Notes under the pieces: generated by a model | The model's input: only the letters and a program-made list of their open reading frames with translations | Told to the model about the DNA's origin: nothing | The model's database searches: none | Position numbers and translations under genes: made by a program | DNA from: an uncultured Nitrospiraceae bacterium | GTDB taxonomy: Bacteria; Nitrospirota; Thermodesulfovibrionia; Thermodesulfovibrionales; SM23-35 | NCBI GenBank assembly: GCA_963725545.1 | Contig: CAVRZG010000008.1 | Span: forward strand, 59,392-123,391 | Reading direction: 5' to 3' | DNA: 64,000 bases | Shown: piece after piece, positions 3,387 to 19,872 of the stretch | Numbering within the stretch: position 1 is the first letter of the stretch | Layout: each line of letters opens with the position of its first letter

Positions 3387-3393
3387 CCGTTGT

Positions 3394-3417
3394 CCCTTCC
3401 CTCTCCGAAGGGTTTAT
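3394..3417 (+). terminator. Possible rho-independent terminator after the repeat protein
   Basis: Stem CCCTTC (3394-3399) pairs with GAAGGG (3407-3412) around a 7-nt loop, followed by TTTAT. Confidence 0.4.
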
Positions 3418-3816
3418 GAAAACGACGGGAAAGCCTCAGTGCTGTCCTGAATATCTGCCGCCGCCCTCCCTTTAACCGCACTCGATCTCTATCACGATGT
3501 AAATCCAATCGGAAGTACTATTTTTGTAGGACAAACACCGACAAAAAAAAGGACGCTTTTCTGATTGCATCGACCAAACATTTAAGATAAAATATGATTA
3601 TACATATTGTTAATATTTAACTATTTATATAGCACTTAATATCAGAAGCTTAAGGTGGCAAGACTGTCGAATGTATCAAATCTCAAAAGGGCACTCTGTC
3701 CAATCCTTGAAAAAATAAGATAAATTTTGGGTATAGAGTTTGCTTTGTCGGAGAGACAAATAATTTCGCCACAAAAATCTTTAGAAGATAAACCGCTAAC
3801 AGGAGGAGGGAAAGTC

Positions 3817-6800
3817 ATGAGGGTAAATAAAGACGGCTCAGGAGGCCGCATAGCAAAAACTGATAAATGGTACCTTGCTGCCTTTATCACATTGATGGTC
3901 TTGCTTTTTCATGCGGACGCTAATGCATTTATATTCACTGTAAATGTGAAGGATGATAACAATGCTGCGGTGAACGGCTTCCGGTGGCTTCTGGAAGAAG
4001 ATAATACATATCCTATTGTTCCGGGGGCCCACGTGTCGGACAGCCCGGCAGTGAGCATCCATAAAAGTCATGCCCCTGTTGCGGCAAATGGCGCTTCGGC
4101 AACTTCCTCGGCGACAATTACCGTGCCTGACGGGCGCTATTTTCTGTCTGTGCTTGCTTCTACAATGAATTACACATTGAGCGGCGCGAGCATAGATACC
4201 ATCAAACTTGCAGCCAATCCGGTTGTTGATGTTGTCCTTCACAACCATCCGGTGCCTACAGCCCAACTATCGGTGCTTGTATTTCATGATAACCAACCCA
4301 TTAACAATGCCCCGGACCAGCCTTTCGAGGCAGGTCTCGAGGGCTTTACGGTCATTGTCAACGACCAGTTGGGACAGATGTCACAGGATGCATTTGGAAA
4401 TCCGCTGGGAACAACCTATCAGTTCGATGCGTTGGGAAATCCAATGACTGATCTTGCGGGCAACTATTTGATAGATATGATGGGGACAGGTGAGATTAAG
4501 ACCGATGCAAACGGCACCGCCTCAGTCAAATATCTTGCGCCTGGGAAGTATACCATTCTGATCACGCCGCCTATTGGAACGGACTGGATACAGACGAACA
4601 CGATAGAAGGCACTCCTAAGATTGATGCATGGGTCAAGGCCAACGAGCCCCCCCTCCTTATAGAGTTCGGACCCGGCCTGCCGCATGTGTTTTTCGGTTT
4701 TGTCCATCCGATGGATTTGCTGGGCACAATGCCGCTTCAACCGGGAGAGTCCAGGGGCACTGTAACGGGTAGGATTGTCAAAACACATCAGGCCCGCCCC
4801 CCGGATATACTTTTATACAACGGGGTTCCTGTTCCGGAATGTTATATCGGCCTGAATACAGCGGCTGGTACAGGCGTTTATGTTAAGGCATGCAATGATG
4901 ACAGCACTTTCCAGATTAATAATGTGCCTCCCGGAACTTATCAGATCGTTATATGGGACAAACCTTTGGACACAATCTTCGGGTTTTATACGGTCATTGT
5001 ACCGCCTGCAGGTGGAACAATTAATACCGGCGACATTCCCGTCAACCAGTGGTTCGGGACCCTTAAAGGGACTGTATTCAGTGATAATACTAATACGGAT
5101 GGATATATGGACCCCGGCGAGTCGGGTATACCCAACCAGATAGTGAACCTTCGTTTCCGGGATGGATCAATGTATCAGACGACAACCACCAGACCTGACG
5201 GAGGCTATATGTTTGAAGAAGTCTTTCCGTTTTTCAAATGGCTGATGGTAGAAGTAGATTACACTCGATACAAACCCACCGGTTCAACATTGATAGTAGA
5301 CGACGGCGGTCCCCTCGCTCCAGGCGCAGAGTTGAACCCCCAGCTTCAGCCTGAGAACAGCAATCTGGGTTGGCGCACGGAGACTTCTCCTTTCCCTGTC
5401 TTGCTGGAAGCCATGACCCTCTATGCCGATCAGACCAATATTATCAACTGGGGAAAGGTGAATTACGGTCAGAATGAAAATGGCGGCATTGCAGGAATTA
5501 TTTATTATGCAACCACCAGAACTGAGGCGGACCCGAGAGCTGCGGTACCCGACCCATGGGAACCCGGAATACCAAGGGTTCAGGTCAACCTCTATCAGGA
5601 CGCGGACATGAACGGTGTCATCGATGATTTAAATGGCGACAGCAGCGTAACTCTCGCGGACGTTGATAATTATCCGTTGAGCTGGTCTACAGGCGGAGCC
5701 AAAGGTCCCGAAGACGTGGATTATAACAGTGACGGAATCTTCGACCCGGGCGATGCCCTGAATATTGCATGGTCGGACAGCTGGGATGACAACATGCCTA
5801 CAGGATGTGTCGGCCCTGCGCAGAGCGCCTACGGCCAGCCCCTTCAGGACTGTGCTGAAACAATGGTAACATGGAACCAATTGCGACCCGGCGTTTTCGA
5901 CGGCGGATATATCTTCACATCATATTTTCCGGGAGGAATGGCATCCGGAGCAGCAGAGGCGGAGGGACTGCCTGCAGGGACGTACATTGTACAGGTCAAC
6001 CTGCCAAATGGTTATGAACTTGTAAAGGAAGAGGACCAGAATATATTCACCGGAGATCAGTATTCCCCAAGCTTATTGCTTCTTCCATCTGTGTGTGTCG
6101 GCGATCCGCATCCAGTTCCGCCTTATCAGACCTTATTCCCGGACCAACTACTTCCGGCTCCCTTTGCAAACCAGACAAGACCGTTGTGCGATAAGAAGCA
6201 GGTCAAGCTCTCGGACGGCCAGAATGCTGCCGCTGATTTTCATCTCTTCACGGAAGTGCCGAAGGCAGCTCGTGTTGTCGGCCTTATCACCAATGACCTT
6301 GCCGTTACACAGAATCCGAATAATCCCGTGTTCACTGAAAAAGCGACCGTCCCCTGGATACCCATTTCATTCAGGGATTACACCGGCAAAGAATTAGTTC
6401 GGACATATAGTGATGAATGGGGAGCTTACAATGCCCTTCTTCCATCCACGTATACGATCAACCCTCCCATTCCCACAGGTGTTTCACCTCATATGATTTC
6501 CATCTGCCTGAATAACCCGGGGCCTATTCCGGACCCTGCGCATCCAGACCAGTTTATTACCGACCCGAATTTCGACCCGCGGTTCAGTTCGACCTGTTAC
6601 ACCCTGGATTTCTGGCCCGGCAAGACAACATATGCCGATACACCGGTAATTGCCGTTGCGGCATTCGCTGCTCCGCAGAGCGCCACGCTGGACTGCCAGT
6701 TCCCTGATGCAACCCCTGTGATTTATTCTGTAAGCGGCGGGGCGGACGTGGGACCATATGTATCGGGCTCAGGCCAATCAATTACGATAACATCTGCCGG

Positions 6801-9414
6801 CACTAATGTGGAGGTGCCGAATCCTGACTATGATCCGTTTGTCGTTCCGGGTAATCCGAAGACTGTCTTCCGTGATTACAGTTTTGGAGCTGCCCAAGGT
6901 TCAGGCAGTGTGACGGTCGGCGGAATTCCGCTTACGATAAATTCCTGGTCGCCGACGACTATCGATGCCGCAGTTCCTCCGGGCACACAGACAGGTGAGC
7001 TGTTGGTGACAAGAGGCAACGGAAAATCTACGGTGATGGGAGTGACCCTTAATGTGGGGAATAACGGCAACCCTGTTGTCAATCTCCTCTCTACCGATTC
7101 GATACAGACCGCTATAACCAATGCTGCCCCAGGGACACTCATCATGGTTCCTCCGGGGACATATAATGAAAATATCATCCTGTACAAGAACGTTAAACTG
7201 CAGGGATGGGGAGCTGCCTCAACGTTTATCAATGCAAGCCCGATCCCTATAGAGCGAGTACCTGCATGGAGAAGCCTCCTGAATAGTTTTATCGCAGGCA
7301 ATCAGGTAGACCTCGCGCCAGGGCAGACCCCGGCCTTTACTGAAGAAATAGCCCCCGGCATTATGGTTATAACAAAGCAGAACACCTTCAGCAGCGGATT
7401 GAGGCCTCGGATTGATGGTTTCACCATCATGGGGGCATCAACCTCAGAAGGAATTTTCGTCAATGCCTATGCCCATTATCTCGAGATCAGCAACAATAGA
7501 ATCATAAGCAACCAGGGTCCATATGCCGGCGCTATCCGGATTGGTACCCCGGGCCTGACCGATCCGGGCTGCATAGACAGCCACTCTAACGCGGTATACT
7601 GCAGTTCCCAGAATGATCACTTGAACATCCACCATAACCACATCGCAGGGAACGGCACCAGTGGATTTGTAGCTAACGGCGGCGGCGCCGGAGGTATCTC
7701 CCTTTACAACGGTTCTGATTTTTACACGGTAAGAGACAACTTCGTATGCGGCAACTTCACCACTGCGAAGGGAGCAGGCATTGTCCATTCCGGCATGAGC
7801 AATCAGGGAGAAATCTCATTTAACAAGGTGCTCTTCAATGAAGCGTCCTTTGGTACGGGGAGTGGCGGGGACGGCGGTGGAATAATGATAGCAGGGGAGC
7901 CGGCCCTTGCCGGAGCGCCTGGAAATCTGACCGTCGGGACAGGAACGGTTTTAATCAATGCGAACCTCATTCAGGGTAATCTTTCAGGCGCAGGGCTGGG
8001 AGGCGGAATCTTCACATCCCAGGTAAATGGCCGGGATGTCTTTTATTCTCCCTTTAATTCTGCGAACTGGAACACTGTCAACATTTTCAATAATATGATC
8101 GTCAATAATATGGCGGGTTACGCCGGCGGCGGAATTGCAATGTTTGACACCGCAAAGGTGAGAATCATCAACAATACCATTGCCGACAATGACAGCTCTG
8201 CAACAGGCATTGCTGCGTTTACAAACGGCCTTCAGCAGTCAATGCCCCAGGGCGCCGGCATTGTATCCACCCTTCACAGTGCCGAGTTGAAAAATGTAAT
8301 CGGATCAGGCGGGGGGCCCGAATTCAACACGAACTTCTCAAACCCTCTCCTCTACAACAATATTTTATGGCAGAACAGGTCATTCTACTGGGATGCCAAT
8401 CAGGCTGCAAACGCTACGGGAGGTCTTGTTGCTAACCCCTCCCTGCCGTATTGGGATCTGCAGGTTTTGGGATCAACAACATTCAAGATGTCCCCCCAGT
8501 ACTGCATACTAACCAGTGCTACAGGATACTCAAGCACCAATAGAGGAGGAACAGCAAATAATCCGAGATTTGATACTCCTTATTTCAATCAGCTCTCAGC
8601 TGCGGCATCACCCGGTGAAGGCGGGAACTTCATACAGGCGCTTTTCAAACCGCTAACACTCACAGGGAATTATCATATCCAATCGAATTCACCTGCTATT
8701 AACAGAGGCAGTAATATTTATTTGTCTCTTGTTCCTGCTGATTATGACAGACAGTCGCGTCCGAATGGCGTGCTTGTCGACATCGGAGCGGACGAATTTT
8801 CCACTTTTGTAGCTAATCCGACCATAACGGTTGTTGCGCCTAATGGCGGAGAAAACTGGCCTATTGGGGCGACGAGGACTATCAACTGGACATACACCGG
8901 CAATCCCGGCAACGTAAAAATCGAGCTCTTTAAGGGTGGCTTGCTCAACAGAACAATTTCAGCAAACGCATTCATAGGAAGCGGAGGAAACGGCTCCTAC
9001 AGCTGGACGATACCGGTTAATCAGACTACCGGCGCCGACTTTCAGGTCAAGGTGACAAGCGCGTCGAATGCGACCGTAACCGATACGAGCAATGCCAACT
9101 TTACGATCTCGCCTCCGACCATAACGGTTGTTGCGCCTAATGGCGGAGAGAACTGGACAAGAGGGACGATAAGGACAATTACCTGGACATACACTGGAAA
9201 TCCCGGCACTTTTCTCAAAATCGAGCTTTTGAAAGGCGGCGTATTAAACAGTACCATCACCACTTTCGCATCTGCTGGAATCAACGGCAATGGGTCCTTT
9301 ACCTGGTTCATACCCTTCAATCAGGCCACAGGTAATAATTACCGGATCAGGGTAACAAGCACAGCTAATGGGACCGTAACGGATATGAGCAACGCTGACT
9401 TTGCAATACAGTAA
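3817..9414 (+). CDS. Giant secreted surface protein (~1865 aa): SdrD-B/CarboxypepD_reg-like Ig domains, IPT/TIG-like domain, long right-handed parallel beta-helix (PbH1) region, two C-terminal GGENW modules
   Basis: SD AGGAGGAGGG at 3801-3810 and ATG at 3817. Signal peptide MRVNK..MVLLFHADANA. Domain-type strings: VFSDNTNTDGYMDPGESGIPNQIVNL (SdrD-B type), GSVTVGGIPLTINSWSPTTIDAAVP (IPT type), and beta-helix turns (ISNNRIISNQG, IHHNHIAGNG, FNNMIVNNMAGYAGGGI, IINNTIADND). Cap ..LVDIGADEF, then two ~98-aa modules. Confidence 0.8.
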   Translation: MRVNKDGSGGRIAKTDKWYLAAFITLMVLLFHADANAFIFTVNVKDDNNAAVNGFRWLLEEDNTYPIVPGAHVSDSPAVSIHKSHAPVAANGASATSSATITVPDGRYFLSVLASTMNYTLSGASIDTIKLAANPVVDVVLHNHPVPTAQLSVLVFHDNQPINNAPDQPFEAGLEGFTVIVNDQLGQMSQDAFGNPLGTTYQFDALGNPMTDLAGNYLIDMMGTGEIKTDANGTASVKYLAPGKYTILITPPIGTDWIQTNTIEGTPKIDAWVKANEPPLLIEFGPGLPHVFFGFVHPMDLLGTMPLQPGESRGTVTGRIVKTHQARPPDILLYNGVPVPECYIGLNTAAGTGVYVKACNDDSTFQINNVPPGTYQIVIWDKPLDTIFGFYTVIVPPAGGTINTGDIPVNQWFGTLKGTVFSDNTNTDGYMDPGESGIPNQIVNLRFRDGSMYQTTTTRPDGGYMFEEVFPFFKWLMVEVDYTRYKPTGSTLIVDDGGPLAPGAELNPQLQPENSNLGWRTETSPFPVLLEAMTLYADQTNIINWGKVNYGQNENGGIAGIIYYATTRTEADPRAAVPDPWEPGIPRVQVNLYQDADMNGVIDDLNGDSSVTLADVDNYPLSWSTGGAKGPEDVDYNSDGIFDPGDALNIAWSDSWDDNMPTGCVGPAQSAYGQPLQDCAETMVTWNQLRPGVFDGGYIFTSYFPGGMASGAAEAEGLPAGTYIVQVNLPNGYELVKEEDQNIFTGDQYSPSLLLLPSVCVGDPHPVPPYQTLFPDQLLPAPFANQTRPLCDKKQVKLSDGQNAAADFHLFTEVPKAARVVGLITNDLAVTQNPNNPVFTEKATVPWIPISFRDYTGKELVRTYSDEWGAYNALLPSTYTINPPIPTGVSPHMISICLNNPGPIPDPAHPDQFITDPNFDPRFSSTCYTLDFWPGKTTYADTPVIAVAAFAAPQSATLDCQFPDATPVIYSVSGGADVGPYVSGSGQSITITSAGTNVEVPNPDYDPFVVPGNPKTVFRDYSFGAAQGSGSVTVGGIPLTINSWSPTTIDAAVPPGTQTGELLVTRGNGKSTVMGVTLNVGNNGNPVVNLLSTDSIQTAITNAAPGTLIMVPPGTYNENIILYKNVKLQGWGAASTFINASPIPIERVPAWRSLLNSFIAGNQVDLAPGQTPAFTEEIAPGIMVITKQNTFSSGLRPRIDGFTIMGASTSEGIFVNAYAHYLEISNNRIISNQGPYAGAIRIGTPGLTDPGCIDSHSNAVYCSSQNDHLNIHHNHIAGNGTSGFVANGGGAGGISLYNGSDFYTVRDNFVCGNFTTAKGAGIVHSGMSNQGEISFNKVLFNEASFGTGSGGDGGGIMIAGEPALAGAPGNLTVGTGTVLINANLIQGNLSGAGLGGGIFTSQVNGRDVFYSPFNSANWNTVNIFNNMIVNNMAGYAGGGIAMFDTAKVRIINNTIADNDSSATGIAAFTNGLQQSMPQGAGIVSTLHSAELKNVIGSGGGPEFNTNFSNPLLYNNILWQNRSFYWDANQAANATGGLVANPSLPYWDLQVLGSTTFKMSPQYCILTSATGYSSTNRGGTANNPRFDTPYFNQLSAAASPGEGGNFIQALFKPLTLTGNYHIQSNSPAINRGSNIYLSLVPADYDRQSRPNGVLVDIGADEFSTFVANPTITVVAPNGGENWPIGATRTINWTYTGNPGNVKIELFKGGLLNRTISANAFIGSGGNGSYSWTIPVNQTTGADFQVKVTSASNATVTDTSNANFTISPPTITVVAPNGGENWTRGTIRTITWTYTGNPGTFLKIELLKGGVLNSTITTFASAGINGNGSFTWFIPFNQATGNNYRIRVTSTANGTVTDMSNADFAIQ
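8821..9411 (+). repeat. Two tandem ~294-bp coding modules (GGENW / Kre9-KNH-like Ig module) at the 3' end of the giant gene
   Basis: ITVVAPNGGENW..G..RTI.WTYTGNPG..KIEL.KGG.LN.TI......G..GNGS..W.IP.NQ.TG.....I.VTS..N.TVTD.SNA.F.I occurs twice. The PF10342-like assignment is from memory only. Confidence 0.8.
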
Positions 9415-9471
9415 ATGGACATGAAGTCTTTGAAGCATATAAATGTCGGAATTGATAGAAAGGAGTCAACC

Positions 9472-10641
9472 ATGAAAGGCATAACCAAGTATCTCATATT
9501 ATTGATCACGGCCCTCTCGGTCTGTGTTATTAATGCGGAAGCGGACATAGCGACACAGTGTCCGGCAACCATCATTAATACAGCCACCGGAGAGACGAAC
9601 AATCCCAATATTATTTGTAAACATCTGACTGCCGGAGACGGCTTTGTCAAGATGGCTGACGGAACTGACTCTTATATATTCGGGTTCTCCGATGTAACAG
9701 GGGTCCCGGATAACCAGGTCATGGATATGGGGATGCTGATGGCTAATTTTTCGGCGCCTACACTTACGGTGAGAGAAGGCCAGGAATTCTATCTCACTCT
9801 TACTAACGCGGGCATGATGATGCGTCCTGATCTCTTTGATCCGCACACAGTCCATTTTCACGGCTTCCCAAATGCGTCATCAGTTTTTGACGGAGAGCCG
9901 ATGGCGTCTATCGCCATAAACATGGGCAACAGCATAACCTACTATTACAATGTGGTAGAGCCCGGCACCCATATGTACCACTGTCATGTTGAGGCGTCAG
10001 AGCACATGCAGATGGGCATGCTCGGAAACCTTTATGTGCTCCCTGCACAGGATGGCACCTCCTACGGTGGATATACAACCTTCGCGTACAACGATGGGGA
10101 CGGCTCAACCGGTTATGACGTTGCCTATCCGATTCAAATGGTGTCGTTTGATCCGAATTTTCACGCGGCGGACCTGAATATTCAGCCTCCTCCTTTTGCC
10201 TTGATGAAAGACACTTATACCATGCTGAACGGAAGGGGATATCCCGACACAATAAATCCTTCGGTTATTCTTAACATGAACGGAGATCCTTCTCAGCAGA
10301 TAAACTCCCTCATTACCGCTGCCCAAGGAGACAAGGTGCTGCTGAGGATTTCGAGTCTCTCAACCACTGATTTCTATACTTTGGCCATTCTCGGAATTCC
10401 TATGAAAGTTGTGGGTACAGGCGCCCGCATCCTGCGGGGGAAAGGTTTGCCTTCTGGAACAGACCTGTATTACAACACCAATTCAGTCACGCTCGGTGGC
10501 GGTGAGTCGACAGATGTAATCCTTGATACAACTGACGTCGATCCCGGCACGTATTTCCTGTACACCACCAACCTGAATGACCTTAGCAATAATAATGAAG
10601 ATTTCGGTGGAATGATGACCGAAATTGTCGTCACGCCTTAG
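9472..10641 (+). CDS. Two-cupredoxin multicopper-oxidase subunit A: N-terminal domain has a complete T1 site plus 4 trinuclear-cluster His; C-terminal domain has no ligands
   Basis: SD AAGGAG then ATG at 9472. Sec signal MKGITKYLILLITALSVCVINAEA. HTVHFHG (HxxHxH, ~9844-9864). YHCHVEASEHMQMGM (HCH at 9979-9987, followed by H and M). The second domain (LNGRGYP..VLLRISS..) has no HxH motifs. Confidence 0.85.
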   Translation: MKGITKYLILLITALSVCVINAEADIATQCPATIINTATGETNNPNIICKHLTAGDGFVKMADGTDSYIFGFSDVTGVPDNQVMDMGMLMANFSAPTLTVREGQEFYLTLTNAGMMMRPDLFDPHTVHFHGFPNASSVFDGEPMASIAINMGNSITYYYNVVEPGTHMYHCHVEASEHMQMGMLGNLYVLPAQDGTSYGGYTTFAYNDGDGSTGYDVAYPIQMVSFDPNFHAADLNIQPPPFALMKDTYTMLNGRGYPDTINPSVILNMNGDPSQQINSLITAAQGDKVLLRISSLSTTDFYTLAILGIPMKVVGTGARILRGKGLPSGTDLYYNTNSVTLGGGESTDVILDTTDVDPGTYFLYTTNLNDLSNNNEDFGGMMTEIVVTP

Positions 10642-10661
10642 GTGAGATGAGGAGGAATGCC

Positions 10662-11999
10662 ATGAATAAATTCAATAGAACGACACTTATTTTGTTTTTC
10701 TTGACCTTTACGATCTTCACGTGGACTAAGAATCTATATGCCTTTATTGAGGGTGTGAGCGGATCGTCATTTAATCTGACCGCTAAGACAGGGCACATCA
10801 GCACGCCTGACGGCAACAGCGTCTTTATGTGGGGGTTTGCGTTGGATACCCCAAGCGCTTTTTGTCCAGGGGGCGGTTGCATGCAGTATCCCGGGCCCAC
10901 CTTTATTGTGAATCAGAATGATACGGTAACGATCACTCTGACCAACGGCCTTGCAGAACCTGTATCAATAGTATTTCCGGGGCAGGCTGTCACTGCGACC
11001 GGAGGGGTCCCGGGTCTTCTGACAAATGAAGCCCTCCCAGGGGGGACGGTCCAATACTCATTTACCGCAAACAACCCCGGCACATTCACCTATTACAGCG
11101 GCACAAATTCCGCGCTGCAGGTTGAAATGGGCCTTGCCGGGACACTCATAGTGAGGCCGGCAGGTTACAATGAAGCGGACATGGATACGTATAAGGCATA
11201 TTCTCATAATGATTCAAAATTTGATCGTGAATATCTCTTTTTCCTCAGCGAGATAGACCCTAATATTCATCAACTCGTGGAATTCGGCAAAATGGATATG
11301 GTTGATACAACCACGTTTTTCCCGAACTATTTCTTTGAAAACGGACGCAACCTCCCGGATACGATGGCTGATGCCTATGTCGACTGGCTCCCGAGCCAGC
11401 CTTATAACTGTATGCCTATTATGCATCCCAACGAGAAGGTGCTTATCAGATTCGTCGGCGGCAACAGGGCGTCACATCCGCTTCATACCCATGGGAACAA
11501 CCATCTTGTAATTGCCAGAGATGGGAAGCTTCTCGAAAGCACTCCCGGCGCAGGCGCAGACCTGTCCGAATCGAATTTTACAACAACAGTTTATCCGGGA
11601 GGAACAGCAGACGCTATCTGGACATGGACGGGAGAAAAACTCGGATGGGACATCTACGGCCACACTGATCCGACAAACACCGGGAAGATAGGCGCAGCAT
11701 GTACCGCAGCCGGTGTGCCCCTCCAGCCTGGCGAATATGAACCCGACCACTGCAAACCCATACCTGTTAATCTGCCTGACATACTTAGCCTCACAGTGGG
11801 GCCGCATTACAGCGGAAGTCCGTTCCTGGGCCAGATGGGCGCTCTTCCTCCTGGAACCGGCGGTTATAATATGTTCGGCGGGATTTTCTTCATGTGGCAC
11901 TCCCATAATGAGAAAGAACTCACCAACTACAATATTTTCCCCGGCGGCATGGCTACGATGGCTGTTGTTGAACCGCCCGGCGCGCCTATAATGCCTTAA
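10662..11999 (+). CDS. Two-cupredoxin multicopper-oxidase subunit B: N-terminal domain has no ligands; C-terminal domain keeps 4 trinuclear-cluster His but has no T1 Cys
   Basis: SD GAGGAGGA then ATG at 10662 (alternative ATG at 10647). Signal MNKFNRTTLILFFLTFTIFTWTKNLYA. Domain 1 has VSIVFPGQ and TYYSGTNSALQVEMGLAG in place of the HxHG and WYHSH motifs. Domain 2 has HPLHTHG (11475-11492) and MWHSH (HSH at 11898-11906), with Ser where the T1 Cys would be. Confidence 0.8.
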   Translation: MNKFNRTTLILFFLTFTIFTWTKNLYAFIEGVSGSSFNLTAKTGHISTPDGNSVFMWGFALDTPSAFCPGGGCMQYPGPTFIVNQNDTVTITLTNGLAEPVSIVFPGQAVTATGGVPGLLTNEALPGGTVQYSFTANNPGTFTYYSGTNSALQVEMGLAGTLIVRPAGYNEADMDTYKAYSHNDSKFDREYLFFLSEIDPNIHQLVEFGKMDMVDTTTFFPNYFFENGRNLPDTMADAYVDWLPSQPYNCMPIMHPNEKVLIRFVGGNRASHPLHTHGNNHLVIARDGKLLESTPGAGADLSESNFTTTVYPGGTADAIWTWTGEKLGWDIYGHTDPTNTGKIGAACTAAGVPLQPGEYEPDHCKPIPVNLPDILSLTVGPHYSGSPFLGQMGALPPGTGGYNMFGGIFFMWHSHNEKELTNYNIFPGGMATMAVVEPPGAPIMP

Positions 12000-12013
12000 T
12001 GAGGAGGAAAAAA

Positions 12014-15000
12014 ATGAAAGAGAAAAATATAATACTGAAAAGAACTCTGACACTTGCATTTGCTCTTGTCAGCTTCCTGACCCTTATGACAGGCATTTCC
12101 TTTGGTGCGGATGTAGATGTCTATCTGAGGGCGGATGTGCTGACGATTCCTGTTAATACGTTCAACAACCCGGAACCTATTGTAATGTGGGGATATGCCC
12201 AATGTCCCACTAATGCATTTACCGGGTGCTCTGCGGCAACCGTGCCCGGCCCTACTATAAGGGCCAAAGCAGGAGATGTGCTCACAATTCATCTGAAGAA
12301 TAATTTGGCAGGGGCATATACTGAGCCGACTTCGATCATAATTCCGGGACAGATTACAACCATGCACCCTGTATGGATTGACAATGTCGGCTCCATCGTC
12401 TCTACGGATTCCAGAAACGCTTCTGACATCACTTCGAGGGTAAGATCATTTACCAGTGAAGCTTCTACTGGAGGACAGGAGAACTATACTTGGAATGGTG
12501 TCGTGGGCGCTCCTGGTCTGAAGGCTGGGACCTATCTTTACCAGAGCGGGACACACCCGTCGCTTCAGGTCCAGATGGGACTTTATGGCGCACTGATAGT
12601 TGACACTAACCCAGCTGTAGCACCCAAAGTTGCTTATGCGGGAGTGACTTATGACAGTGAAGCAATCGTGCTCTATAGCGAGATAGACCCTGAACTCCAT
12701 TATTCAGTGGCCTCCGGCAATTACGGCATTCAGCAGCCCGCGCCGCCTGCGCCTCCCATCAGGGGACGCATAACAAGTACTATTGATTACAACCCTCGGT
12801 TCTTCCTGGTAAATGGGACACCTTACACTCCCGGCAGCTCTCCTGTTTTCACGGGAAGTCAAGGAGACACGACAATCATAAGGTACCTGAACGCAGGACT
12901 TCAGACTCATGTGCCAATTGTTCAAGGCTCTTATATGTCTATTATGGCGGAAGACGGCAATCTGCTGCCCTACCCAAGAGAACAATACTCAATGATGCTG
13001 GCTGCCGGAAAGACCTTGGATGCGATCATTACGCTCCCTTCCACACCGGGCTACATCCCCATCTACGACAGGACGCTCGACCTGACAAATGGAGCTGCCG
13101 CCCCCGGAGGATTGCTTGCATATATAAATGTTCCGGGACCTGCTCAGTACACTTTGACTGTCAATAAAACCGGAAGCACCGGCAACGGCACAATATTAGC
13201 GGCAAGCATGCCGGGTGGTATATCATGCGGAACTGATTGTCAGGAGACATACAACTCCGGAACTGTATTGAGACTTTCAGCCATACCTGATGCGGGTTCT
13301 TCTTTTGCAGGATGGTCGGGGGACCCCTCGTGCACAGGCATAGGGACATGCATCGTTACAATGAATGCCGTCAAAACAATCACAGGCGTATTTACACCCA
13401 TAGTCTATCATACGGTCACTCCATCAGTAGGGTCGGGCAACGGCACGATTAGCCCGTCCACCCCTCAGTCGGTGGTTTCCGGCAATACCGCATCCTTCAC
13501 GCTGAATCCGGGCGCTCACTATCATATTTCATCGGTCGGCGGCGACTGCGGCGGCACTCTTGTTGGGAACCAATACACTACAGCGTCAGTCACAGGGGCT
13601 TGCAACGTTATAGCCAATTTTGCGATTGACCAGGTCACCGTTACTCCTTTGATCGCAGGAAGCGGCAGCACGAATCCGTCGACACCTCAAACGATAGATT
13701 ATAATACCTCCACTTCCTTTACAGTAAACGCAAATGCAGGGTTTCATATTCAGTCAGTCACGGGATGCGGCGGGACATTACTTGTCGATACATTCACAAC
13801 GGGGCTGGTCACTGCAAACTGCACTGTAACGGCAACCTTTGCGCCGGACACATACACTGTTAATCCATCGGCCGGACCAGGCGGCGCTATTAATCCGTCA
13901 ACCCAGCAGACAGTGCCGGCCAATCAGACAACAGCTTTTCTCATAAGCCCGAATGCAGGGTTTCAAATCAACACAGTCACCGGATGCGGCGGGACATTTA
14001 ATGCAAATACAAATACGTATACAACAGGACCTATTACCTCCAACTGCAACGTAGCAGCCACGTTTGTGCAAGGCATAAACGTCGGTGTCCCCAATGGCGG
14101 CGAGAATTGGCTACCAGGCACAGTGCAGACAATCAGATGGACATACTCCGGGGCAACGGGCAGCTTCGTGAAGATCGATCTTTACAAGGGTGGTGTGTTT
14201 AATAGAACCGTTATCGCATCCACATTCACAGGCACCGGAGGAAACGGCTCTTATATCTGGCCTGTGCCGTCCAATCTTGTGCCTGGAACAGACTACCGGA
14301 TAAAGGTAACAAGCACAACAAACAGCACACTAACAGACATAAGCAATAACAACTTCACCATCACTGGTCCGACCATAACGGTTGTTGCGCCTGATGGCGG
14401 AGAAAACTGGCAGGCTGGGACAACGACGGCTATCACCTGGACATACACCGGCAATCCCGGCAACGTGAAAATCGAGCTCTTTAAGGGCGGCTTGCTCAAC
14501 AGAACCATTTCGGCAAGCGCCTCTGTCGGCGCAGGCGGGAACGGCTCTTTCAACTGGGCTATACCGTCCAATCAGACCACAGGTCCTGATTTCCAAATCA
14601 AGGTAACAAGCACATCGAATGGGACTGTAACTGATATGAGCAATGCCAACTTTACAATATCGCCTCCGCCCATCACTCCTTCGACCATAACGCTTGTTGC
14701 GCCTAACGGCGGAGAAAACTGGCAGGCTGGGACGACGACGGCTATCACCTGGACATACACCGGCAATCCCGGCAACGTGAAAATCGAGCTCTTTAAGGGC
14801 GGCTTGCTCAACAGAACCATTTCGGCAAGCGCCTCTGTCGGCGCAGGCGGGAACGGCTCTTTCAACTGGGCTATACCGTCCGATCAGACCACAGGTCCTG
14901 ATTTCCGAATCACTGTAACAAGCATATCGGATGGAACTGTAACGGATACAAGCATTTCTAACTTTACAATATCGCCTCCGCCCATCGCTCCTCCGCCCAT

Positions 15001-15292
15001 AACGGTTGTTGCGCCTAATGGCGGAGAGAACTGGACAAGAGGGACGATAAGGACAATTACCTGGACATACACTGGAAATCCCGGCACTTTTCTCAAAATC
15101 GAGCTTTTGAAAGGCGGCGTATTAAATAGTACCATTACCACTTTCGCATCTGCTGGAATCAACGGCAATGGGTCCTTTACCTGGTTCATACCCTTCAATC
15201 AGGCCACAGGTAATAATTACCAGATCAGGGTAACAAGCACATCGAATGGAACCATTACGGATATGAGCAACGCTAACTTTACAATACAGTAA
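12014..15292 (+). CDS. Ligand-free MCO paralogue (two degenerate cupredoxin domains) fused to four InlB-B-repeat-like Ig domains and four GGENW modules; predicted non-catalytic scaffold/anchor subunit
   Basis: SD GAGGAGG then ATG at 12014 (an ATG at 11999 overlaps the stop of subunit B). Signal MKEKNIILKRTLTLAFALVSFLTLMTGISFGA. Clear homology to subunit B (IVMWGY, PGPTI, TSIIIPGQ, YLYQSGTHPSLQVQMGLYGALIV, LYSEIDPELH), but every Cu-ligand position is substituted. Followed by the G.G.I..S.P..I.CG..C..TY..GT.V.L.A.P..GS.F.GWSGD type repeat and three relatives, then 4 GGENW modules. Confidence 0.75.
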   Translation: MKEKNIILKRTLTLAFALVSFLTLMTGISFGADVDVYLRADVLTIPVNTFNNPEPIVMWGYAQCPTNAFTGCSAATVPGPTIRAKAGDVLTIHLKNNLAGAYTEPTSIIIPGQITTMHPVWIDNVGSIVSTDSRNASDITSRVRSFTSEASTGGQENYTWNGVVGAPGLKAGTYLYQSGTHPSLQVQMGLYGALIVDTNPAVAPKVAYAGVTYDSEAIVLYSEIDPELHYSVASGNYGIQQPAPPAPPIRGRITSTIDYNPRFFLVNGTPYTPGSSPVFTGSQGDTTIIRYLNAGLQTHVPIVQGSYMSIMAEDGNLLPYPREQYSMMLAAGKTLDAIITLPSTPGYIPIYDRTLDLTNGAAAPGGLLAYINVPGPAQYTLTVNKTGSTGNGTILAASMPGGISCGTDCQETYNSGTVLRLSAIPDAGSSFAGWSGDPSCTGIGTCIVTMNAVKTITGVFTPIVYHTVTPSVGSGNGTISPSTPQSVVSGNTASFTLNPGAHYHISSVGGDCGGTLVGNQYTTASVTGACNVIANFAIDQVTVTPLIAGSGSTNPSTPQTIDYNTSTSFTVNANAGFHIQSVTGCGGTLLVDTFTTGLVTANCTVTATFAPDTYTVNPSAGPGGAINPSTQQTVPANQTTAFLISPNAGFQINTVTGCGGTFNANTNTYTTGPITSNCNVAATFVQGINVGVPNGGENWLPGTVQTIRWTYSGATGSFVKIDLYKGGVFNRTVIASTFTGTGGNGSYIWPVPSNLVPGTDYRIKVTSTTNSTLTDISNNNFTITGPTITVVAPDGGENWQAGTTTAITWTYTGNPGNVKIELFKGGLLNRTISASASVGAGGNGSFNWAIPSNQTTGPDFQIKVTSTSNGTVTDMSNANFTISPPPITPSTITLVAPNGGENWQAGTTTAITWTYTGNPGNVKIELFKGGLLNRTISASASVGAGGNGSFNWAIPSDQTTGPDFRITVTSISDGTVTDTSISNFTISPPPIAPPPITVVAPNGGENWTRGTIRTITWTYTGNPGTFLKIELLKGGVLNSTITTFASAGINGNGSFTWFIPFNQATGNNYQIRVTSTSNGTITDMSNANFTIQ
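14072..15289 (+). repeat. Four tandem ~300-bp coding GGENW modules (approx 14072-14371, 14372-14683, 14684-14995, 14996-15289)
   Basis: Direct reading. Modules 2 and 3 share a ~200-nt core that is nearly identical. Module 4 is nearly identical to 9121-9411. Confidence 0.85.
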
Positions 15293-15332
15293 ACGTCCAT
15301 AGGCGCATGTTGAATCCGACTTGACGGGTTCA

Positions 15333-15374
15333 CCCGCCTTGCACCTCCCTCTGCTGAAGGAGTTGCAAGGCGGG
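15333..15374 (+). terminator. Long GC-rich hairpin after the MCO operon (terminator-like, no clear U tract)
   Basis: CCCGCCTTGCA (15333-15343) pairs with TGCAAGGCGGG (15364-15374); there is an inner CTCC/GGAG stem. Confidence 0.4.
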
Positions 15375-15606
15375 ACAAAGAATAATGATGCCAAAGTATC
15401 CGTCGATTTATTAAAATAAAGAAACAACCGGAGATGATATCTGTTCAGCTTGTGCTGACCCTGCTGCTTACAGGAATAAATGAAGAACCCTGCGGCAGAG
15501 ACCGCAGGGTATCTTAATGTAAGGAATTGTTTTTTTAGATTCGCTCGCTAACCCGGCGGCAAGCCGGCGGGAAATGCACTCGATATCCGTTTCAGAAGGA
15601 CTGAGA

Positions 15607-17934
15607 ATGACGATAAAAAAGGTGTCTTCACTTTTTGCTTTTTCGGCTGTGTGTATCTGTATACTGGCTTTTGCGCATAATGCTTACGCAATAAACCATG
15701 CTGCGTCACTCGAAAAATTAATCCGTTCTCTAAGTCCGGAGTACGAATTGCCTGTAATTATCCATATGTCCGACAAAGCAGCCATTGGTTCCATAACAGG
15801 TAATGATAAACGGATACGAACAACAAAGATTGTGCGGGCACTCAAAGACAAGGCAAATGTGACCCAGGCGAAGCTCCTGTCCTTTCTCGAAATGAGAGAA
15901 GCCCAAAAAATAAAAAGCCTATGGATTATTAACAGCATTGCGGCAGCTGTGCCGGTCAGGTTCATTCCCGAACTGGAAAAATTTCCCGGGGTAGAAAGCG
16001 TTGAGCAGGACTATATTGTGCACGCGCCTGTTGTTAAGTATGGAAGCGCGGCCTTGCCGGAGTCGAACCTGGAGGCTATCAGAGCACCGGAGGTCTGGAA
16101 TCTGGGGCACACGGGGGCGGGAGTGGTAGTTGCAACCGTGGATACGGGCGTTGATATTCATCACCCGGACCTGGCAGGCAAATGGAGGGGCGGCGCCAAC
16201 AGCTGGTACGACCCCAACGGCGAGCACTCTTCACCGTATGATGCGGACGGCCACGGCACAATGACCGCAGGGATTATGATCGGTGGTTCGTCGGGAGGGA
16301 CCGCGATCGGGGTTGCTCCGGATGCGAAATGGATCGCAGTCAAGATTTTCAATGACAAAGGGGATTCAACGACAAGTGATATTCACGATGGTTTTCAATG
16401 GCTTCTCGACCCGGATAACAATCCCGTTACCGATGATACCCCTGATGTTGTCAACGCCTCATGGGGATTAGTTGACAGCACTGGGAACTGCGTTCTCAGT
16501 TTCCAGCTGGACATACAAAATTTAAGGGCTGCGGGCATTGCAGTCGTCTTCGCAGCTGGAAACGAGGGGCAACCTGCTCCGCCTTTGACAAATACGAGCG
16601 ACAGCCCTGCAAACAATCCGGGCTCCTTTGCTGTGGGAGCGGTCGACAGTAATAATATAATAGCGTCATTCAGCAGCCGCGGACCTTCTGCCTGTGACGG
16701 CAGTATATTCCCTCATGTAGTTGCCCCCGGAGTGGATATCCGGACCTCAGACCTTACAGCAGGAGGAGTTTTTCCTGATTCTTATACCTATGTATCTGGC
16801 ACGTCTTTTTCTGCGCCTCATGTTGCAGGCGCCATGGCCTTGCTAAAAAGCGCATTTCCCGGAAAGACTATGGAGGAAATTGAACTGTCGCTGGAGCAAT
16901 CTGCAACAGACCTCGGAATCCCGGAGGGCGACAACGCCTATGGATACGGACTGATAAATGTATTGAGCGCATACAATGTCCTTCTGACCGCTAATTCTGC
17001 GAGCCCTAAAATTGAAGTCTCGCCTGCATCCTACGATTTTGGAGAAACCGTAGCAGGCGCAAGTTCTTCGCCGGCTTCCTTTCTATTTTCCAATAAAGGG
17101 ACCTCAGACCTTCAAATGGGAGCGGCATCTTTTGGCGGAACAAATACCGATGATTTTAAGATACTCGCTGATAACTGTTCAGGCAGGACGTTGGGCGAAC
17201 AATCAACCTGCTCCGTCGAGATATATTTCATGCCGTCCTCGACCGGCATAAGAACTGCATTTCTTTCCATGACTTCCAATGATCCTGTTGCACCGATATT
17301 GTCCGTAGCGCTTGCGGGAACCGGCAGTGCCCCTCAGGCGCTGACCGTAATGTCTCCTAATGGCAGTGAGAACTGGACTACAGGGACTAAACTGACCGTA
17401 CAATGGACATACTCAGGGAACCCTGGTCCTTTTGTTAAGATCGAACTCCTCAAGGGAGGAGTATTGAACCGCACGATCAAAGCGCGGATTTCAGCGGGTA
17501 AAGGCGCCTACACATGGACTGTCCCGGCAAAACAAAAACTCGGCAATGATTATCGGATCAGGATCAGGAGCACGTCCAATATTGCTTATACCGATACGAG
17601 CGATTCTGATTTCTCCATAGTCTCGCCGCCGCCGCCCTCGATATCCGTTACAGGTCCCCACGGAGGTGAAGTTTGGCAGAGAGGCTCCTCGCAATCCATC
17701 AACTGGACATTTGCAGGGAAGGCGGGCACATATGTGAAGATTCAATTGTTTAAGGGTGGAGTGCTCAACAGGACAATATCGTCATCCGTCAAGATAGGAA
17801 GCAACGGCTCCGGATCATTTGCCTGGAGAATTCCGCTGAATCTGACTACAGGGGATACCTATCAGGTAAAGATCACAAGCAAATCAAAGGGCACTGTTAA
17901 TGATATTAGCAATGGTACTTTCCAGATACAATAG
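15607..17934 (+). CDS. Secreted subtilisin-like serine protease (peptidase S8) with I9-like propeptide, a beta-sandwich domain and two C-terminal GGENW modules
   Basis: ATG at 15607 after GAAGGA. Signal MTIKKVSSLFAFSAVCICILAFAHNAYA. Catalytic triad contexts VVATVDTGVD, DGHGTMTAG and SGTSFSAPHVAG. Then PKIEVSPASYDFGE..FSNKGTSDL..DF (choice-of-anchor-D/ASH-like), then LTVMSPNGSENW.. and ISVTGPHGGEVW.. modules (17341-17931). Confidence 0.9.
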   Translation: MTIKKVSSLFAFSAVCICILAFAHNAYAINHAASLEKLIRSLSPEYELPVIIHMSDKAAIGSITGNDKRIRTTKIVRALKDKANVTQAKLLSFLEMREAQKIKSLWIINSIAAAVPVRFIPELEKFPGVESVEQDYIVHAPVVKYGSAALPESNLEAIRAPEVWNLGHTGAGVVVATVDTGVDIHHPDLAGKWRGGANSWYDPNGEHSSPYDADGHGTMTAGIMIGGSSGGTAIGVAPDAKWIAVKIFNDKGDSTTSDIHDGFQWLLDPDNNPVTDDTPDVVNASWGLVDSTGNCVLSFQLDIQNLRAAGIAVVFAAGNEGQPAPPLTNTSDSPANNPGSFAVGAVDSNNIIASFSSRGPSACDGSIFPHVVAPGVDIRTSDLTAGGVFPDSYTYVSGTSFSAPHVAGAMALLKSAFPGKTMEEIELSLEQSATDLGIPEGDNAYGYGLINVLSAYNVLLTANSASPKIEVSPASYDFGETVAGASSSPASFLFSNKGTSDLQMGAASFGGTNTDDFKILADNCSGRTLGEQSTCSVEIYFMPSSTGIRTAFLSMTSNDPVAPILSVALAGTGSAPQALTVMSPNGSENWTTGTKLTVQWTYSGNPGPFVKIELLKGGVLNRTIKARISAGKGAYTWTVPAKQKLGNDYRIRIRSTSNIAYTDTSDSDFSIVSPPPPSISVTGPHGGEVWQRGSSQSINWTFAGKAGTYVKIQLFKGGVLNRTISSSVKIGSNGSGSFAWRIPLNLTTGDTYQVKITSKSKGTVNDISNGTFQIQ

Positions 17935-17971
17935 AATGTTAGGGTCCCAATAACTTTTGAGAGGTGCTTTA

Positions 17972-18430
17972 GTGAAGTGGAGTGCGACACTTGTTCTTAT
18001 TGCTGTTATCTTTTTCGCAGGGATTAACTTTTCCGTGGGAAGAACTTATGCAGGGGAACAGGCGCAGGCTAAAGAGCCTGTACCCGATGGAGCAAAGGAC
18101 TTGGAAGAGAAATGGGGCATAAAGATATTGAGTATCCGTCTGACGGCAGGGGGCTATATGCTGGATTTTCGTTACAGAGTTATCGATGCTGATAAAGCCG
18201 CGCCTCTTTTTGACGGGAAAATCAAGCCTTATCTCGTTGACCTGAAAAGCGGGGCGAAGTGCCAGGTCCCCGAATCCTCGAAAATCGGGGCCTTGCGTCA
18301 GACCAGAAAACCCTTTGCTAACCACAACTATTTCATCATGTTTGCAAACCCCGGCAAACTTATCAAAAAGGGGAATGCAGTTACTATTGTTGTCGGCGAT
18401 TTCAGGGCTGAAAATCTGACGGTACAGTGA
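17972..18430 (+). CDS. Small secreted hypothetical protein (last gene of the secreted cluster)
   Basis: GTG at 17972 after GAGAGG. The hydrophobic N-terminus VKWSATLVLIAVIFFAGINFSVGRTYA resembles a signal peptide. I recognise no family. The antisense ORF 17969-18460 is less plausible. Confidence 0.55.
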   Translation: MKWSATLVLIAVIFFAGINFSVGRTYAGEQAQAKEPVPDGAKDLEEKWGIKILSIRLTAGGYMLDFRYRVIDADKAAPLFDGKIKPYLVDLKSGAKCQVPESSKIGALRQTRKPFANHNYFIMFANPGKLIKKGNAVTIVVGDFRAENLTVQ

Positions 18431-18505
18431 GATCGCGGGCGCCCTATTGCCAAAAGGCACTTAAATCTACTATTATTAATATACTCTATTTTCAGGAGGT
18501 CAAAG

Positions 18506-18739
18506 TTGAAAGAAGGAATTCATCCACAGTATAAGGAAACCACGGTGCAGTGCGCCTGCGGTGAGACCTTTACGACAAAATCAACAAGTCAAAAAATACA
18601 GGTCGACATCTGTTCAAAATGCCATCCCTTTTATACCGGCAAGCAGAAGATTCTGGATGCCGAAGGAAGGGTTGAGAAATTCAAGAAGAAATACGCGAAG
18701 GCTGCAGCGGCAGCAGCAGCGGCACAGACCAAGAAGTAG
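18506..18739 (+). CDS. rpmE: 50S ribosomal protein L31
   Basis: TTG start after [33 protein letters not shown]......[16 protein letters not shown] matches the L31 signature. Confidence 0.95.
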
Positions 18740-18761
18740 ATACGCATAATCGATATAGAGT

Positions 18762-18794
18762 CGTTAGTCCTTTGTTGGCTAACGGCTTTTTTTT
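18762..18794 (+). terminator. Rho-independent terminator of rpmE
   Basis: Stem CGTTAG (18762-18767) pairs with CTAACG (18779-18784), followed by a run of 8 T (18787-18794). Confidence 0.6.
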
Positions 18795-19029
18795 GACTGT
18801 TGCAACGGCAAAAAATCTCCCCTGCCCCTCTTTACCGGATCCCGTGACTTTCGGGACATTTGGTAAAGGTCTTCGACTCGTCACTACCCGCAGGCAGAGG
18901 AGGTCAGGAGGAATTTTGAAATTCAAGGCGGTATTATTATGAGACAATTACTAAAACACATCGTCTCTTTATTCGTTATGCGCCCTTAAGAATATAAAAA
19001 ATGTCGGCGGACAGGCTGTTATAGAAGGC

Positions 19030-19872
19030 GTGATGATGAAGGGCAGAAGGGGCTGGACAGTCGCTGTCAGAGGTCCGAATGGAGAAATCCATCTCAAGAA
19101 AGAGCCTCTGTCGGAGCTGCCGTGGATTTTCAGGCTGCCCATCGTAAGAGGCTTCATCGCATTGTTTCATGCCATGTTCATCGGCATCAAGGCGATAGAA
19201 TTTTCTGCCGACAAGGCATACGACGAAGAAGACGGCGATCAGTTAAGCCCCGTGTCTATCGGACTGACAATCGCTCTTTCGATTTTGCTCGGCATAGGGC
19301 TTTTTGTCCTTCTGCCGCTATATGCCACAAAATTGCTCGGAAATTTCTTCCCTCTTGTCTCCAATAGTTCTCTGATGTTCAATTTTGTCGACGGTGTTAT
19401 CAGGGTCTTCCTGTTCATCCTCTATATTGTCGGAATAGGCATGTGGAAAGAAATGAGGAGGATATTCGAATACCACGGAGCAGAGCACAAGGTAATCCAT
19501 GCTTACGAGAACGGCAATGAGCTTCTGTTCCGGAATATCAAGAAGTACAGTCCGCTGCATCCCCGCTGCGGCACAAGCTTTCTCCTCATCGTCATGATCA
19601 TAAGCATATTCACGTTTTCGTTTATCCCCCAGGCCTGGCCGTTCCTTTACAAATTCTTTTCAAGACTCGTCCTTATTCCCTTGATAGCCGGAATCTCTTA
19701 TGAACTCCTGAAGCTCTCCGCAAAGATGGAACACAATTTCATCATGCATCTCCTGATACAACCCGGATTGTTCCTGCAGAGGCTCACAACAAGAGAGCCC
19801 GACGAGTCACAGATAGAGGTGGCGGTTGAAGCTCTCCAGGAAGTCCTTAAACTTGAGGACGCCAATGCTTGA
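19030..19872 (+). CDS. DUF1385 (YqhQ-like) membrane protein; true start probably upstream of 19030
   Basis: The conserved family N-terminus GGQAVIEGVMM is encoded in frame at 19006-19038, upstream of the first canonical start (GTG at 19030). The gene order rpmE-DUF1385-prfA is common. Confidence 0.8.
   Translation: MMMKGRRGWTVAVRGPNGEIHLKKEPLSELPWIFRLPIVRGFIALFHAMFIGIKAIEFSADKAYDEEDGDQLSPVSIGLTIALSILLGIGLFVLLPLYATKLLGNFFPLVSNSSLMFNFVDGVIRVFLFILYIVGIGMWKEMRRIFEYHGAEHKVIHAYENGNELLFRNIKKYSPLHPRCGTSFLLIVMIISIFTFSFIPQAWPFLYKFFSRLVLIPLIAGISYELLKLSAKMEHNFIMHLLIQPGLFLQRLTTREPDESQIEVAVEALQEVLKLEDANA

Follow-up and report, generated by a model that had tools for sequence, protein, structure and literature searches.

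Matching C-terminal tails in a conserved gene cassette for a putative split multicopper oxidase, a secreted protease and a giant extracellular protein

Why should a giant beta-helix protein, a multicopper oxidase (MCO) paralogue and a subtilase, encoded side by side, all end in the same small module? The question is raised by a stretch of 64,000 nucleotides from an uncultured Nitrospiraceae bacterium (assembly GCA_963725545.1, contig CAVRZG010000008.1, positions 59,392 to 123,391), hereafter the window, to whose first letter all coordinates refer. At 3817-18430, six consecutive genes on the + strand encode proteins that we call A to F, and three of these (A, D and E) finish in tandem copies of an immunoglobulin (Ig)-like module. 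The initial annotation had counted eight such modules, two in the giant protein, four in the MCO paralogue and two in the S8 protease, and had regarded them as the attachment device of one extracellular unit. Our comparisons suggest that the region is one copy of a widely conserved cassette for the exported proteins A, B, C, D, F and E, that the tails of A, D and E frequently match each other within a genome whatever their fold, and that the encoded oxidase is probably divided among three chains. The genes are as follows.

3817-9414, + strand: gene A, giant secreted protein of 1865 amino acids (aa)
9415-10641, + strand: gene B, two-cupredoxin MCO subunit, 408 aa
10647-11999, + strand: gene C, two-cupredoxin MCO subunit, 450 aa (Pfam and PDB matches)
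11999-15292, + strand: gene D, third MCO paralogue, 1097 aa
15574-17934, + strand: gene E, secreted S8 subtilase, 786 aa
17957-18430, + strand: gene F, conserved small protein of 157 aa, without a tail

Export had been predicted for these same-strand genes, and the translations agree with it, for all six proteins begin with a hydrophobic, signal-peptide-like segment closed by an A-x-A-like end. Motif search and alignment returned the same eight modules, each of about 100 aa, with pairwise identities of 39-94% in protein and 52-96% in DNA. A hidden Markov model (HMM) built from the eight copies recovered exactly those eight from a six-frame translation of the 64-kb window (domain E values of 1e-45 to 1e-51), and this search found no ninth copy, the next match lying at E > 2. 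Such recurrence far exceeds chance and is restricted, within the window, to A, D and E. In each of these proteins the stop codon follows directly upon the final strand of the last module (FAIQ, FTIQ and FQIQ, then stop). The modules, and the domains that precede them in A and E, are placed thus.

8662-8799, + strand: choice_anch_Q domain of A, aa 1616-1661 (NF041518, 28.8 bits against a cut-off of 25)
8815-9111, + strand: tail module A1, PF10342 Kre9_KNH, 82% DNA identity with D2
9112-9411, + strand: tail module A2, terminal in A, a gene-conversion partner of D4
14066-14365, + strand: tail module D1
14366-14662, + strand: tail module D2, 93% DNA identity with D3
14678-14974, + strand: tail module D3
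14990-15289, + strand: tail module D4, terminal in D
16990-17286, + strand: choice-of-anchor D domain of E (NF012200, 60 bits against a cut-off of 45)
17332-17625, + strand: tail module E1, with E2 the most diverged (39-57% identity to the other copies)
17632-17931, + strand: tail module E2, terminal in E

A resemblance to the Kre9/KNH family, suggested by the initial annotation, is upheld by Pfam, where PF10342 scores 48.8 bits in A, 105.6 in D and 70.3 in E against a gathering cut-off of 24.6, with two, four and two matching stretches respectively. The module consensus given by the initial annotation likewise agrees with the invariant columns of the alignment, which are P9, G11, E13, W15, G18, W25, T26, G29, G32, K36, I37, L39 and K41 in the first part and G42, G43, N46, T48, G59, G61, W65, P68, G74, S83, D91, S93, F97 and I99 in the second. 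AlphaFold2 (AF2) models D4 as an eight-strand beta-sandwich with a predicted local distance difference test (pLDDT) score of 96.6; Foldseek matched this model to generic Ig/Fn3-type folds only, with template modelling (TM) scores below 0.6, and no close relative was found among solved structures, for which the best sequence match had an E value of 0.02. No conserved metal-binding motif is present among the eight aligned copies. Pfam and NCBIfam models for the C-terminal domain (CTD) of the type IX secretion system (T9SS), for PEP-CTERM and for LPXTG found no match in A, D or E, and the tail was rejected as one of these known sorting signals; Pfam models for dockerin, cohesin, SLH, choline-binding (CW_binding) and GW modules were absent from the three proteins at E ≤ 0.01. 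Taken by itself, the module is an ordinary and very common Ig-like repeat that joins a known Pfam family as a new bacterial member.

N-x-S/T sequons occur in the tail modules at 4-5 per 100 aa, as against 0.5-1.1 in the catalytic parts, a density of 1.7-2.9 times the compositional expectation, and each of the eight copies keeps the sequon N46-x-T48. Within the window, a glycan-synthesis cluster at about 43-53 kb includes a gene for a GT41-family glycosyltransferase (48766-50613, - strand), and glycosylation of the tails is conceivable.

How far the module extends beyond the cluster was assessed in representative proteins and in species-representative (GTDB) genomes; the latter set does not include the window's own genome and holds a best module match of 65%, so that related genomes stand in for it. 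Among the representative proteins, the eight-copy profile matches 20,147 with an E value of at most 1e-3, and the stricter limit of 1e-30 leaves 2,987. A separate homologue search with the module profile gave proteins of at most 175 aa, and architectures were therefore taken from the representative search and from locus scans. The genome scan places the motif-bearing subtype in Nitrospirota/Thermodesulfovibrionia, Deltaproteobacteria, Firmicutes, Dehalococcoidia, Ignavibacteria, Bacteroidota, Verrucomicrobiota, cyanobacteria and candidate phyla radiation (CPR) bacteria, and also in Methanoperedens and Bathyarchaeia, frequently on several unlinked contigs of one genome. In the closest lineages, Nitrospirota/Thermodesulfovibrionia, it stands 0-5 residues before the stop of unrelated secreted proteins, among them S8, C1 and M6 peptidases, a GDSL lipase/LamG protein and NHL propellers in related Nitrospirota, and the terminal copies generally finish at the last strand (F[TS]I[QN], then stop) without a further signal. 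A special C-terminal residue on terminal modules was considered and rejected, Q or N being frequent (10 of 23) yet not conserved. The supposition that the module is specific to the cluster consequently fails at lineage level: a module carried by unrelated secreted proteins of related lineages does not define the cluster.

One such carrier touches gene E directly. At 3973-6291 of a Thermodesulfovibrionales metagenome-assembled genome (MAG; JBAZWR010000010.1, locus L009), an S8 protease 78% identical to E has the same choice-of-anchor-type Ig domain followed by two PF10342 modules. Neither MCO genes nor F was found beside it within the 12-kb locus, and the protease is thus separable from the cassette.

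What does define the cluster is its gene content. Contigs carrying homologues of B or F yielded the arrangement A-B-C-D-F(-E) at 12 loci, the window and 11 others (labelled L001, L002 and so on below), in Nitrospirota, a Deltaproteobacteria MAG, Geobacter sp. DSM 9736, Methylocaldum, Phycisphaerales and several metagenomes, hence in at least four phyla. Sizes are regular (A 1650-1930 aa, B about 400, C about 430, D 334-1097 and F about 150), an S8 protease is usually present, and the window differs solely in gene order, with E-F in place of F-E. All cores are homologous, with tblastn identities of 39-78%, distributed as follows.

A core (about 1700 aa): 46-48% identity to orthologues at five other phylum-level loci
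B: 60-75% identity to orthologues
C: 52-58% identity to orthologues
D, N-terminus: 39-51% identity to orthologues
E core: 50-57% identity to cassette orthologues
F: 45-66% identity to the gene of about 150 aa in the L002-L005 cassettes compared

Every cassette examined, down to the minimal one of Phycisphaerales, has an F-sized gene at the equivalent place. B-type homologues alone number more than 8,000. Because the same cassette recurs across at least four phyla, the six genes can be regarded as one extracellular functional unit, and on this point the initial annotation was right.

One host, Geobacter sp. DSM 9736 (L084; LT896716.1, 3782623-3803075), is cultured and fully sequenced and carries the complete cassette, which makes it usable for genetics. 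Downstream of the cassette it has two Big_7 proteins of about 930 aa and a polysaccharide export gene. The cassette of the Deltaproteobacteria MAG (L003; GCA_016177845.1) is preceded by a gene for an MtrC/MtrF-like multihaem cytochrome (1-2603) and followed directly by genes for the E, F, G and H components of a type II secretion system (17504-21236), and its S8 protease has a MopE-type copper-binding motif in place of Ig modules. That of Methylocaldum (L004) has SCO1/SenC and cytochrome c genes downstream.

We compared the tails, defined as the regions after the conserved A, D and E cores, all against all, and found that tails from the same genome are usually each other's best match. The clear cases, with protein identities, are these.

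Window: PF10342 tails; A-D 75%, A-E 51%, D-E 51%
L002 (Nitrospirota): about five 45-aa FG-GAP-like repeats ending PVTGKW; A-D 84%, A-E 65%, D-E 69%
L084 (Geobacter sp. DSM 9736): FG-GAP-like repeats as in L002; A, D and E 61-67%
L004 (Methylocaldum): Big_9/cadherin-like tails; D-E 55% over 236 aa
L087: divergent PF10342 on D and E, strong PF10342 on A; D-E 59%
L088: PF10342-like tails; A-D 40%

The matched tails therefore span at least three unrelated types (Kre9_KNH, FG-GAP-like and cadherin-like Big_9), the FG-GAP-like ones being borderline for Pfam FG-GAP_3 (26.2 against a cut-off of 26.9). Across all 12 cassettes B, C and F never bear a tail, and the junction at which tails begin is fixed: in A it lies right after the DIGADE of choice-of-anchor Q, and in E after choice-of-anchor D. 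What is conserved is thus that the tails match, and not the tail type PF10342.

The layouts of the tailed proteins agree with this. By Pfam and NCBIfam, A consists of SdrD_B/CarboxypepD_reg-like N-terminal domains, a beta-helix region and choice-of-anchor Q, which ends in the conserved DIGADE motif directly before A1, and then the two tail modules; no solved-structure relative of its core was found by sequence. E has its S8 domain at aa 181-459 and choice-of-anchor D at aa 473-571, then two tail modules. Both choice-of-anchor domains sit immediately N-terminal of the modules, a family name that we take to mean that a variable C-terminal anchor is expected downstream. The Ig-like modules would accordingly represent an exchangeable C-terminal tail, added to A, D and E beyond their final functional domain.

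The sequences also suggest how matching may be maintained. Tail identity within genomes exceeds that between genomes (67-84% against 57-61% for L002, 75% against 53% for the window), an excess that, as a pattern of sequence divergence, is a signature of concerted evolution. A2 and D4 (9112-9411 and 14990-15289) are 96% identical in DNA; the tract begins and ends precisely where the module does, and identity in the flanks is 13-43%. Module-precise gene conversion between the neighbouring genes is thus visible in the window, in A2/D4 and D2/D3, and conversion of this kind would keep the tails alike mechanically. The two modules of E are old (39-57%) and have been retained all the same, which indicates that the common tail type is not merely the result of recent conversion; and, since the same proteins share a tail of another fold in other genomes, the sharing itself appears to be selected.

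From these observations we lean, with restrained confidence, towards a common tether, exchangeable between lineages, that brings the oxidase, the protease and the giant protein together. D would be the subunit that supplies the oxidase with its tail. Having their tail in common, the three would be kept at one extracellular place, the tails binding either one shared partner (a surface glycan, matrix or substrate) or each other. Our confidence is much higher in the descriptive parts, namely module identity, cassette conservation, ligand partition (described below) and tail matching. Whatever the partner, tail matching offers a comparative argument, independent of domain family, for tails that keep the parts of an extracellular enzyme together.

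Several points weigh against this tether. Tail matching is clear in six of the 12 cassettes, partial in three (L001, L085 and L089) and missing in the remaining three (L003, L005 and L086), whose tails are absent or unmatched, so that matching is frequent and not obligatory; the proposal of a shared device for scaffold, oxidase and protease accordingly gains from the matched tails of other genomes and does not extend to these unmatched cassettes. PF10342-type arrays reach 57 tandem copies in some giant proteins, as is typical of passive spacer repeats. No single universal envelope ligand is possible for a module that archaea share with bacteria of both the diderm and the monoderm kind. The PF10342 literature that we found is fungal work, with no bacterial binding or localisation data, and conversion can homogenise neighbouring repeat genes without selection.

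One alternative is that the tails are passive, rod-forming Ig spacers, which three adjacent genes share merely because repeats in neighbouring genes duplicate locally and convert one another. In its favour, the module is very widespread, with up to 57 stretches in a protein among the 20,147 representative matches; module-precise conversion is demonstrable in A2/D4 and D2/D3, at 96% and 93% DNA identity; some cassettes do without matched tails; and the fold resembles only generic Ig/Fn3 domains. Yet the unrelated folds shared elsewhere, FG-GAP-like in L002 and Geobacter and Big_9 in Methylocaldum, would require that a new tail had spread to two or three gene ends repeatedly and independently, lineage by lineage. 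B, C and F are equally close and never gain tails, the modules of E diverged anciently and were kept, and tails come after choice-of-anchor domains. We consider this alternative unlikely.

Still less probable, in our judgement, is that the tails bind an insoluble substrate, mineral or polymer, rather than the cell, and that the cassette encodes a free, substrate-targeted oxidase system. A similarly composed cluster of Sideroxydans is more abundant on magnetite than on dissolved Fe(II) (10.1101/2024.09.20.614158), the L003 cassette adjoins its MtrC-like multihaem cytochrome gene, and cadherin-like and FG-GAP tails are adhesion-type modules; however, the Sideroxydans cluster is likened to the cassette from its published description, PF10342 tails also occur on proteases and lipases with unrelated substrates, and the module has no conserved metal-binding motif.

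That the tail is a secretion or sorting signal like the T9SS CTD, recognised and perhaps cleaved or covalently attached by dedicated machinery, is very improbable: the extreme C-terminal position on many unrelated secreted enzymes, the location after choice-of-anchor domains and the type II secretion genes directly after the L003 cassette would suit it, but sorting domains are single and terminal and these modules come in two to four tandem copies here and up to 57 elsewhere, often internally, no T9SS, PEP-CTERM or LPXTG model matches, tail type switches between close cassettes with no partner machinery seen to change along with it, and in Bacteroidota/Ignavibacteria-type loci 100-180 further aa follow the last module, which is compatible with a separate sorting domain and means that the module is not the sorting domain there.

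In the oxidase, the tail is carried by the one subunit that lacks copper ligands. B, C and the N-terminus of D each match Cu-oxidase_3 together with Cu-oxidase or Cu-oxidase_2, the two-cupredoxin arrangement of two-domain MCOs (2dMCOs). The ligands are divided among them. Domain 1 of B has the type 1 (T1) copper site and four histidines of the trinuclear cluster, and its domain 2 is without ligands; the motifs HxxHxH (H144, H147, H149) and HCHx5Hx4M (H189, C190, H191, H197, M202) are invariant in 10 of 10 cassettes. Conversely, domain 1 of C has no ligands and its domain 2 holds the other four cluster histidines, in HPLHTHG (H277, H280, H282) and WHSH (H418, H420), again invariant in 10 of 10, with the T1 cysteine replaced by serine. 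Nowhere in the ten D orthologues compared is there an HxH or HCH copper-ligand motif, and the earlier description of the tailed paralogue as ligand-free is thereby confirmed. No one chain of B, C or D contains the set of a complete MCO (two HxH, HxxHxH and HCHxxxH..M); the full set is present only in B and C combined. Since B and C each hold half a centre and D holds none, the oxidase must be assembled from several chains. The parts of D are these.

11999-13198, + strand: N-terminal ligand-free cupredoxin pair, about 400 aa (Cu-oxidase_3 and Cu-oxidase matches)
13199-14065, + strand: Cys-rich InlB-B-repeat-like (Flg_new_2) linker (PF18998, 45 bits)
14066-15289, + strand: tail of four PF10342 modules

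The linker has 10 cysteines in 299 aa. It contains a direct repeat of 68 nucleotides (13725-13792 and 13944-14011, 78% identical), from which it follows that the InlB-B-like repeats, too, were recently duplicated.

The nearest solved relatives of B are the two-domain enzymes 3g5w, 3gdc and 2zwn, aligned across the same motifs, and the best solved relatives of C are also 2dMCOs; domain 1 of B aligns to domain 1 of the type C enzyme of Nitrosomonas europaea (3g5w) through HxxHxH and HCHx5H. By analogy, B, C and D most likely form a ring like the 2dMCO trimers, in which the ligand-free pair of D would close the ring and a single active site would lie between B and C. Known 2dMCOs are homotrimers with three centres, whereas here three different chains would make one centre. 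Six-domain MCOs such as ceruloplasmin or MnxG offer a comparison, a single cluster in a six-domain ring being the pattern of ceruloplasmin. In 2dMCOs the trinuclear cluster forms at the interface of two subunits (PMC11761707). The 'heterotrimer' of that paper was examined as a precedent for a split MCO and set aside, being a proteolytic variant of a homotrimer. Literature containing the phrases 'split multicopper' or 'heterotrimeric multicopper' was not found, nor was anything relevant on heteromeric or split MCOs.

Joining both lines, one arrives at an obligate heterotrimer, a six-domain ring with one B/C centre, united with A and E through the matching tails of A, D and E. We put this forward tentatively, as possible rather than probable. 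It would be the unfused counterpart of ceruloplasmin-type enzymes, the matching tails would serve as the assembly or address code of the machine, and the substrates of the machine may be solid-phase ones, Fe(II) minerals for example. If true, the split oxidase would be a living example of the intermediate proposed between trimeric two-domain and six-domain MCOs. Neither a ligand partition implying a multi-chain oxidase nor matched tails across unrelated folds was found in the literature that we searched.

The cassette has nevertheless been glimpsed before in iron oxidisers, though not dissected. In Sideroxydans ES-1, 'three tandem MCO-coding genes' were described together with a MofC-like gene and a copper chaperone (He et al. 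2017, PMC5566968), and in Sideroxydans lithotrophicus ES-1 the products of Slit_1812-1818 reached higher abundance with solid magnetite than with dissolved Fe(II) (10.1101/2024.09.20.614158). The latter source describes three cupredoxin proteins there: MCO motifs are present in two, while the third is larger, lacks them and has adhesin-like domains. As likened by this published description, the cluster probably belongs to the same family as the cassette: it includes small hypothetical proteins, SCO1/SenC and a cytochrome, of which L004 shares SCO1/SenC and cytochrome c. It differs in that no giant A-type gene or S8 protease is described, and the link to magnetite is a proteomic association only. 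Since the products of a similarly composed cluster rise on magnetite in an iron oxidiser, extracellular oxidation of minerals or metals is a candidate role for the cassette. OmpB and OmpC of G. sulfurreducens are extracellular, type II-secreted multicopper proteins implicated in metal-oxide redox chemistry (PMC5566968); they resemble the present system in having an adhesion-type (Fn3) domain, and a copy of the cassette is also found in a Geobacter (DSM 9736), but OmpB is a single MofA-like polypeptide, and the three-gene MCO type is not homologous to those metal oxidoreductases according to He et al. (PMC5566968).

Tails of this kind may also be set beside known anchoring modules. Fungal PF10342 proteins, of the 'Ser-Thr-rich GPI-anchored membrane family' (GPI, glycosylphosphatidylinositol), share the beta-sandwich, and the window modules are likewise Ser/Thr/Asn-rich and extracellular; characterised fungal members, however, have a single, N-terminal domain on cell-wall or GPI proteins, whereas the window copies stand in tandem at the very end of bacterial enzymes and come without a GPI signal, differences of context that form no Pfam criterion. 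SLH domains, choline-binding repeats and GW modules are non-covalent surface-anchoring repeats common to many proteins of one organism. The likeness to them is that one repeated terminal module, borne by unrelated enzymes and structural proteins, would give these a common location, and that different lineages use different modules for the same job; the modules are nonetheless without sequence relationship to those anchors, and the window organism is probably a diderm relative of Nitrospirota. In cellulosomes, enzymes with the same C-terminal dockerin assemble with a giant scaffold through its cohesins. Here the giant protein A carries the enzymes' own module, not a complementary receptor, and neither dockerin nor cohesin is matched.

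F is the least familiar member of the cassette. Its family comprises at least 502 homologues, all unnamed and all without a Pfam domain. The AF2 model has an N-terminal hydrophobic helix and a small beta-sandwich (pLDDT 83.5), for which no fold match was found in the PDB. Invariant residues include W53, G54, D70-F71-R72-Y73, R114, F129 and N131-P132.

The order of the last two genes is bound up with a structured spacer.

15293-15573, + strand: spacer between D and E with strong hairpins (minimum free energy -106 kcal/mol, z = -5.2 against shuffled sequences)

An 11-bp GC-rich hairpin lies just past the stop of D, and a second hairpin is followed by a T-run, so that the spacer is a possible terminator or attenuator as judged from the letters. 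In orthologous cassettes F occupies this position with short gaps, which implies that the order E-F arose by rearrangement in the window. Given some 282 nucleotides of such strong structure, co-transcription of E-F with A-D is uncertain.

Transcription signals were otherwise few. The ATG of A at 3817 is preceded by the ribosome-binding site AGGAGGAGGG. No sigma-54-like site was found upstream of A in 3387-3816, scans for sigma-70 promoters and terminators did no better than on shuffled sequence, and Rfam gave no match in 3000-19200 at E ≤ 0.1. The window's only perfect sigma-54 core, TGGCAC-N5-TTGC, is at 33099-33113 (+ strand), about 75 nucleotides 5' of an open reading frame at 33190-34041. 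A stand-alone response-regulator receiver gene lies immediately 5' of A in L002, L004, L085, L086 and L087, and two-component or sigma-54 activator genes are found farther upstream in several loci, also in L005 and L089; upstream of A in the window is a 1103-aa TPR protein (75-3386).

The flanks are as first described. A hairpin, CCCTTC...GAAGGG followed by TTTAT, lies at about 3394-3417, 3' of the TPR gene, and rpmE is at 18506-18739. Downstream of the cassette, a gene for a DsbC-like periplasmic disulfide isomerase (21036-21827, + strand) stands amid housekeeping genes, which by their Pfam domains are rpmE, DUF1385, a PCRF/RF-1 release factor, a Phe-tRNA synthetase alpha-type subunit, IF-3 and a class II ThrRS-type synthetase.

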